Source of the DNA: Escherichia phage UPWr_E4
Direction: 5' to 3' (one strand)
Sequence record: PP418987.1
Length of the DNA: 64,000 nucleotides
Shown here piece after piece: positions 46,042-46,825 of this stretch (positions are counted from its first letter, which is position 1; the number at the start of each line of letters is the position of its first letter). The notes under the pieces are model-generated. The model saw only the letters and a list, made by a program, of their open reading frames with translations. It did no database searches and was not told the origin of the DNA. A program made the position numbers and the translations under genes.

Positions 46042-46622
46042 TGATTAAATTGGTATTCGCTTATTCTCCAACTAAAACGGTTGAGGGCTTTAATGAATTA
46101 GCATTTGGTTTAGGTGATGGTTTACCATGGGGACGAGTTAAAAAGGACCTCCAGAATTTTAAAGCTCGTACCGAAGGTACAATTATGATTATGGGTGCTA
46201 AAACGTTCCAGTCATTATCTACATTACTTCCTGGTCGTAGTCATATTGTGGTGTGTGACCTTGCGCGTGATTATCCTGTAACTAAAGACGGCGATTTAGC
46301 ACATTTCTATATTACATGGGAACAGTATATAACTTACATTTCTGGCGGCGAAATTCAAGTGTCAAGCCCTAACGCACCATTCGAGACTATGCTTGATCAG
46401 AATTCCAAAGTAAGTGTAATTGGCGGGCCTGCTCTGTTATATGCTGCGTTACCTTATGCGGATGAAGTAGTTGTTTCTCGCATTGTTAAAAGGCATCGTG
46501 TTAATTCAACGGTTCAATTAGACGCAAGTTTTCTTGATGATATAAGCAAGCGTGAAATGGTTGAAACGCATTGGTATAAAATAGATGAAGTAACAACCCT
46601 TACGGAATCAGTATATAAATGA
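46041..46622 (+). CDS. frd: Dihydrofolate reductase (Frd)
   Basis: 193 aa, [32 protein letters not shown]; size as T4 Frd. Confidence 0.9.
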
Positions 46623-46825
46623 GCAATAAATTAAAAGTTAAGGATGTTCCTAATGCTATGGCCCTTTTTATTTGTCGGCAGATGCATCAAGGGCCTATGA
46701 CACCAAAACAATATCTTAAAGGTGAGCGTTCTTTAGGATTTACTCGCAAAGCAAAACAAATGGTTAAATTAGGATATAAGCCTAACTTTGCCAAATATCC
46801 TTCTACATATTCTTGGATGAACTAA
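46619..46825 (+). CDS. Small basic protein encoded exactly between frd and td
   Basis: 68 aa, lysine-rich; ATG overlaps frd stop (ATGA) and its TAA overlaps td ATG (TAATG). Confidence 0.5.

Follow-up and report, generated by a model that had tools for sequence, protein, structure and literature searches.

A 68-codon gene between frd and td

Our analysis concerned a 64,000-nt stretch of Escherichia phage UPWr_E4 (record PP418987.1; "the window" below means this whole stretch), a segment of a Tequatrovirus (T4-type) genome, and within it a 68-codon open reading frame (ORF), here called ORF68, that lies between frd and td. The segment runs through gp59, a SegG-family endonuclease, gene 32, small ORFs, frd, ORF68 and td exon 1, followed by the td intron with I-TevI, td exon 2, nrdA.2/nrdA.1-like ORFs and nrdA (Table 1). 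The sequence-only reading of this DNA had placed a 68-aa ORF precisely at the frd-td junction, overlapping frd in an ATGA and td in a TAATG, and both the frame and its two overlaps were confirmed. It had described the product as lysine-rich, which agrees with the composition (10 Lys among the 68 residues, 3 Arg, 1 Asp and 1 Glu; pI 10.3; net charge about +11; ~8 kDa), and had stated that frd and td overlap directly in T4, as they do in NC_000866, where frd (145109–145690) overlaps td, which starts at 145112, by 4 nt with no ORF between them. In alignment the window exceeds T4 here by exactly 206 nt, with a copy of a 5-nt direct repeat (AATGA) on either side; the ORF68 frame fills this insert exactly, and the 3' end of frd is that of T4, identical as far as the ATGA.

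Judged from its sequence, ORF68 is a real gene under selection, because its pairwise dN/dS (the ratio of nonsynonymous to synonymous divergence) is 0.12–0.23 against the homologues from Klebsiella, Enterobacter and Serratia phages, with synonymous divergence (dS) saturated. The length and motifs are kept among homologues down to ~30% identity, with the same length at ~43% (Phapecoctavirus) and near-invariant residues K4, K6, P11, R20, K34, G40, F41, M48, L51, G52, Y53 and P55. The G+C content of ORF68 is the same as that of the neighbouring genes, and by our own estimate (not a tool output) the chance of an open 68-codon frame is ~0.005 per start at the local base composition.

The stop of the ORF68 homologue overlaps the td start by 1 or 4 nt in 11 of 11 intact Straboviridae loci examined. 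Between 46052 and 46825 the + strand shows nothing resembling a promoter or terminator, and the RNA at both ORF68 junctions is unstructured (z -0.15 and +1.95). ORF68 probably shares the frd-td-nrd message and relies on coupling to frd for its translation; it would take over the region from which td is initiated in T4, and td would be re-initiated at the TAATG of ORF68, behind the GGA encoded by a conserved Trp-Met. A regulatory RNA structure at the junctions was considered and rejected, as there is no stable fold and Rfam gave nothing. A promoter-early stem-loop (PeSL) cassette was likewise set aside, since the insert has no promoter- or terminator-like site and the junction RNA is not stably folded.

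A catalogued, phage-confined family

ORF68 belongs to phrog_9550 (E 1.3e-45, residues 1–68 on profile positions 1–68 of 68). A collection of 1.84 billion representatives at 50% identity holds 13 real clusters of its relatives, and one of 5.8 billion at 90% identity holds 48; all of these are 42–125 aa long and unnamed, and the family is confined to phage-like contigs. In tblastn searches the protein was found in 239 phage records, 137 of them at 80% identity or above; the latter copies lie at the frd/td junction of Tequatrovirus and Dhakavirus genomes, and each genome has a single place for ORF68, with no paralogue. Copies 95–100% identical occupy that junction in ~135 public phage genomes, mostly annotated "hypothetical protein", and are present but unannotated in JS98 and JS10. 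The phrog_9550 members from vB_EcoM_ACG-C40, fFiEco06, fPS-65, pSs-1 and IME339 are identical or 95–100% identical to the window copy, sit in the same position and share its ATGA and TAATG overlaps, with no difference of substance. ORF68 is thus a T4-like accessory ORF of a common sort, annotated before, and not a new insertion. The sequence-only reading had proposed a precise gene gain in a nucleotide-metabolism operon: the segment is indeed extra relative to T4, with the overlaps kept on both sides, and a lateral gain in the Tequatrovirus lineage is favoured (see below), while its novelty did not stand, the family being catalogued and the T4 overlap being the minority state. That reading had also named the presence of the ORF in well-studied T-even phages as a finding that would count against it; this is borne out in part, ORF68 being present in many T-even-type phages, JS98 and JS10 included, and absent from T2, T4 and T6.

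More distant homologues lie directly upstream of td in T4-like phages of Klebsiella (79% identity), Enterobacter (68%) and Serratia (59%). Those of Phapecoctavirus are ~43% identical and stand among small ORFs; these and the most distant homologues have their own Shine-Dalgarno sequence and unrelated small-ORF neighbours, and are not beside td. The neighbours of the distant homologues are unannotated small ORFs, which offer no functional clue. IMG/VR contributed only 10 loci, none from an ORF68-carrying Tequatrovirus, and the population comparison is drawn from GenBank records. A few copies are irregular: the one in an IMG/VR contig (L014, 893–1097) is frameshifted and stops after 34 codons, Klebsiella phage EI (MN106245) gives a match in two pieces, and IME339 and F48 annotate the gene from an internal start (42 aa). 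Such frameshifted or internally started copies may reflect sequencing errors or decay.

No known domain was found for ORF68 in Pfam (E up to 10), NCBIfam (E up to 1) or PDB sequences, and PADLOC defence-system models matched none of 24 family members. The AlphaFold2 (AF2) model is all-helical, with three predicted helices at residues 13–24, 29–39 and 43–50; the mean confidence (pLDDT) was 74 in one run and 82.5 in a later run with five concordant models. Two database labels could be discounted. The DUF4858 label of phage Shinka (GenBank MZ502379) corresponds to no Pfam family at E up to 10, and "flagellar biosynthesis protein" (MH809535 and PV390659; phages PYPS2T and P8) has no Pfam or NCBIfam match and is annotation noise. 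A capsid-targeted internal protein was dropped as a candidate from the sequence itself, the ORF68 N-terminus having none of the Leu-x-Glu cleavage leader of such proteins. Our literature searches, on ORF68 and on polymorphism of the frd/td junction, found no paper discussing ORF68.

Three states of the frd/td junction

When an 801-nt query spanning the junction was compared with other phages, many T-evens proved to have a different insert of ~413 nt. Read directly in T6, T2 and RB14, this insert encodes a 115-aa ORF (phrog_1928) unrelated to ORF68, named td.1 in the T6 record AY262134 and RB32ORF229c in RB14, where the record notes that it is "flanked by 9 bp repeat"; it is also present in RB51 and RB3, and in 363 records in all. 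A copy of the 9-nt direct repeat TAAATGAAA stands at either end of the td.1 insert, and deletion between the two copies gives the exact T4 junction. The ORF68 state is represented by 133–137 records. The T4-type empty junction accounts for at least 28, with T4 and its laboratory derivatives making up 15 of these. The frd/td junction is a three-state slot (empty, td.1 or ORF68), and the empty state of T4 is the rarest. T4 is, in other words, a poor reference for this junction: the textbook overlap is rare, and most relatives have one of two unrelated genes.

The Tequatrovirus genomes have td.1, ORF68 or neither, and none of those sampled has both. Other Straboviridae genera show the array frd, phrog_1928 (one or two copies), phrog_9550, td, as in Klebsiella phage F48, Enterobacter phage MY742 and Serratia phage WSPA, where one or two phrog_1928 ORFs lie between frd and the ORF68 homologue. 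Because ORF68 homologues stand upstream of td in these other genera, the family is old in that position, a point that our data show in part. Like ORF68, td.1 is an occupant of the frd/td slot bounded by a short direct repeat that includes ATGA, and the two families stand side by side in the Klebsiella, Enterobacter and Serratia phages; td.1 differs in being an unrelated protein with its own ribosome-binding site and with non-coding tails instead of overlaps. ORF68 also resembles the small non-essential ORFs of the T4 gene 32-nrdA region (frd.1, frd.2, frd.3, nrdA.1 and nrdA.2), which are short, co-transcribed, variably present and interspersed among nucleotide-metabolism genes, but to which it has no sequence relationship. 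In T4-like phages it is normal for small optional ORFs to stand between core genes, and ORF68 has little practical weight.

An island of identity on diverged flanks

Sliding comparison of the window with the Dhakavirus JS98 shows ~77% nucleotide identity through frd and td, against 97–100% from the ORF68 ATG to ~57 nt into td. In the same pair dS is 1.03 for frd, saturated for td exon 1 and 0.052 for ORF68. Between Tequatrovirus and Dhakavirus, ORF68 copies differ at only 3–7 of 206 nt, against a difference of ~23% in frd and td on either side. For six carriers (the window, fPS-2, EcNP1, sb1, JS98 and JS10), ORF68 together with td nt 1–40 is 96.6–100% identical in all pairs, compared with 77–98% for frd and 75–97% for the rest of td exon 1; two further carriers, G3G6 and PD112 (eight in total), show a matching pattern in dot alignments.

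The island extends into td as a 5' variant set apart from the td of T4, T6, T2 and RB14 by changes at nt 16, 17, 30, 33, 34 and 36, giving the Td substitutions D6F and F12L. The variant is found in 6 of 6 ORF68-carrying Tequatroviruses and in 4 of 4 Dhakaviruses sampled, and in none of four Tequatroviruses that have no ORF68. Dhakavirus is itself polymorphic: Bp7 and PSD9 have a T4-like ATGA overlap with no ORF68 and near-identical flanks, and they keep the td 5' variant, which in them sits on an otherwise Dhakavirus-type td. As these ORF-less phages carry the td nt 16–36 signature, the tract linked to ORF68 is therefore native Dhakavirus td. At the protein level, all ORF68 carriers sampled have a Dhakavirus-type Td N-terminus where T4 has MKQYQDLIKDIF (window 46840–46860, td nt 16–36). 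D6F is a non-conservative change, because T4 and the phages of Klebsiella, Serratia and Enterobacter have Asp or Glu as residue 6. The residue varies within the genus, the Dhakavirus IME341 (L008) having Asn (MKQYQNLIKDIL) where JS98 has Phe and T4 Asp.

Both ends of the island could be placed closely. On the right, the crossover lies in td nt 37–44 in PD112 and in nt 37–56 in the other carriers. On the left, the join is within a few nt of the ATGA; phage sb1 has the Dhakavirus C at position -3, which puts its join in the 7-nt CAGTATA, while the window has the Tequatrovirus T. The ATGA overlap itself is built alike in JS98 and JS10 and at the empty Dhakavirus junctions of Bp7 and PSD9. The same cassette rests on different td haplotypes, RB14-like in fPS-2 and T4/T6-like in the window.

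Our preferred explanation, to which we give a probability of about 70%, is that ORF68 is a phage-only accessory gene in a polymorphic slot, recently received from a Dhakavirus-like donor and perhaps encoding a nucleic-acid-binding factor. Its genetic and evolutionary part we hold with considerable confidence. As we infer from the island, the window lineage would have acquired ORF68 laterally and recently, through a single transfer into Tequatrovirus whose left join fell at the ATGA microhomology and whose right join fell inside td nt 37–44, and later homologous recombination would have spread the cassette over different Tequatrovirus backgrounds. Seen in this way, ORF68 offers a clean natural case of a single gene crossing phage genera with translational coupling intact, the junctions of the transfer being a start/stop overlap on one side and a point ~40 nt into td on the other.

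Some points weigh against this explanation. The direction of transfer rests on 14 genomes out of 569 records (six Tequatroviruses and two Dhakaviruses with ORF68, four Tequatroviruses and two Dhakaviruses with none), and a third party may have donated the gene to both genera. Translation of ORF68 is itself a prediction, and because five Straboviridae lineages always keep the gene next to td, its role could be td-related and not a generic accessory one.

Possible roles of the product and alternative explanations

The charge of the protein, its natural presence/absence polymorphism and how very recently it has spread between genera and continents are our reasons for guessing, tentatively, that ORF68 encodes a nucleic-acid-binding accessory protein, dispensable and conditionally useful. 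Such a protein might act in host take-over or counter-defence and not as an enzyme of nucleotide metabolism, a suggestion that we put forward only weakly. It is a further and rather unlikely step to suppose that ORF68 swept recently because it benefits its carriers in counter-defence or host range, with one short-homology transfer from Dhakavirus to Tequatrovirus after which the gene rapidly reached about one in four of the T4-like coliphages sequenced worldwide. Were it true, the frd/td slot would be a small "arms-race" locus with td.1, ORF68 or nothing as alternative cargo, and its three alleles would be convenient for testing selection on T-even accessory genes.

The adjacency to td could instead mean that ORF68 is a dedicated partner or regulator of Td or of the dNTP complex, perhaps a stabilising subunit, or perhaps a translational coupler that sets the level of Td. 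The gene lies inside a nucleotide-metabolism operon, and in all the Straboviridae genomes examined, among homologues 59–100% identical, it runs into td with overlapping stop and start. Nevertheless, we find this distinctly unlikely: ORF68 is dispensable in nature, being absent from T4, T2, T6 and about three quarters of related genomes; the Phapecoctavirus and distant homologues are independent of td in both position and ribosome-binding site; and shared descent of a syntenic block can account for the adjacency.

A different history for the same slot is that an ancestral ORF68 upstream of td was retained vertically in the window lineage and lost from T4 and the td.1 phages by deletion between ATGA-containing repeats. 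Homologues do adjoin td upstream in Marfavirus, Muldoonvirus and an Enterobacter phage, with dS of ~1.2 or saturated, which fits long residence; deletion across either the 5-nt repeat of ORF68 or the 9-nt repeat of td.1 gives the exact T4 junction; and Dhakavirus too shows empty junctions with near-identical flanks. Loss of ORF68 is likely at some empty junctions, such as that of Bp7. For the window lineage we consider retention improbable, as vertical descent predicts equal divergence in ORF68 and its flanks, whereas the observed dS of ORF68 is 20-fold lower, and as ORF68 is always accompanied by the Dhakavirus-native td nt 16–36 tract that is missing from ORF-less Tequatroviruses.

A young island on diverged flanks in two genera, and presence/absence polymorphism between conserved genes, are also what a selfish cassette might leave behind, one that drives its own inheritance in mixed infections through an activity of the 68-aa protein, or hitch-hikes on I-TevI (0.55 kb downstream) or on the SegG-like gene (3.3 kb upstream), both of which the window has. 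The six substitutions within 21 nt of td, completely linked to ORF68, would then be a cleavage-resistant variant of the target; target-site polymorphisms of free-standing homing endonucleases resemble such clustered, linked substitutions. Taken with its resistant target, we judge this cassette very improbable. By Pfam and NCBIfam ORF68 has no nuclease domain or catalytic motif (GIY-YIG, HNH or LAGLIDADG), its model is all-helical and it is only 68 aa long, while the substitution cluster is more simply Dhakavirus-native td, being found in ORF-less Dhakaviruses as well. Co-conversion with I-TevI as the vehicle was rejected, since ORF68 occurs with an intron-less td in EcNP1, sb1, JS98 and JS10 and the stretch of td exon 1 between ORF68 and the I-TevI site is not co-inherited. 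The homing-endonuclease cassettes of T-even phages (segG, mobE, segF and others; PMC2988022) are likewise optional inserts between conserved genes that have moved between related phages with a short stretch of a neighbouring gene, but ORF68 is far too small, has no GIY-YIG or HNH motif, and is linked to a td variant that is donor sequence.

That the frame is incidental, a 206-nt spacer selected only for translational coupling of frd, spacer and td, is scarcely credible: ORF68 has no known domain or fold and many relatives dispense with it, but a non-coding spacer is excluded by the strong purifying selection on its amino acids despite saturated synonymous sites, its conserved residues persist in homologues away from td that have independent ribosome-binding sites, and its structure prediction is confident and consistent.

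Other features of the region

Table 1. Features at and around the frd/td junction; positions refer to the window except in the last three rows, which refer to the records named.
Feature	Position	Strand	Basis or remark
SegG-family homing endonuclease gene, 210 aa (phrog_7504, E 1e-133)	42652–43284		between genes 59 and 32, as in T4
Gene 32	43339–44244		
frd (dihydrofolate reductase), 193 aa	46041–46622	+	ORF list; named frd in all matching GenBank records
AATGA, left copy, bounding the 206-nt indel relative to T4	46618–46622	+	alignment to T4
Left junction ATGA (ORF68 start overlaps frd TGA stop)	46619–46622	+	
ORF68, 68-aa basic ORF (phrog_9550), ATG start	46619–46825	+	ORF list; sequence as quoted in the sequence-only reading
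Right junction TAATG (last A of ORF68 TAA is first A of td ATG, 46825)	46823–46827	+	
AATGA, right copy (TAATG then A)	46824–46828	+	alignment to T4
td nt 1–36, Dhakavirus-type 5' tract linked to ORF68	46825–46860	+	
td exon 1, 183 codons	46825–47373	+	ORF list
td group I intron, presumed length 1016 nt	47374–48389	+	
I-TevI gene in td intron, 245 aa	47505–48242	+	position of the T4 I-TevI gene, equal 738-nt coding length
td exon 2	48390–48701	+	reading frame 48387–48701
nrdA	49259–51523		
td.1 insert, T6 (L021)	1798–2210		
td.1 (RB32ORF229c), RB14 (L023)	1826–2173		
td.1 insert, T2 (L022)	3304–3716		unannotated in the T2 record

The frame of td exon 1 closes at a TAA (47374–47376) formed by the first bases of the intron (TAATTGAGGCC...). 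The exon/intron boundaries are presumed from the exon lengths and the T4 intron sequence; the start of exon 2 follows from a total td length of 861 nt in intron-less relatives. An Rfam search at the gathering threshold did not report the td group I intron, plain as its sequence and the I-TevI ORF are, and we suspect that this is due to the 738-nt ORF sitting in one of its loops. Loci homologous to the I-TevI gene of the window are annotated "homing endonuclease"; in the T6 record AP018814 (L021) the ORF at the I-TevI position (2890–3627) is labelled "RNA polymerase sigma factor for late transcription", evidently a mis-annotation.

Downstream, a 392-aa ORF starts ~50 nt past nrdA (51523–52753) and has a size that fits an uninterrupted nrdB; unlike in T4, no mobE-sized ORF or nrdB intron is evident near it. 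Upstream, two small ORFs lie between frd.1 and frd, at 45440–45799 (119 aa, phrog_3566) and 45784–46041 (85 aa, phrog_3183). The corresponding gap in T4 is only 72 nt, while T6, RB14, fPS-2 and EcNP1 have ORFs there, so the frd.1-frd interval looks like another variable slot upstream of frd.
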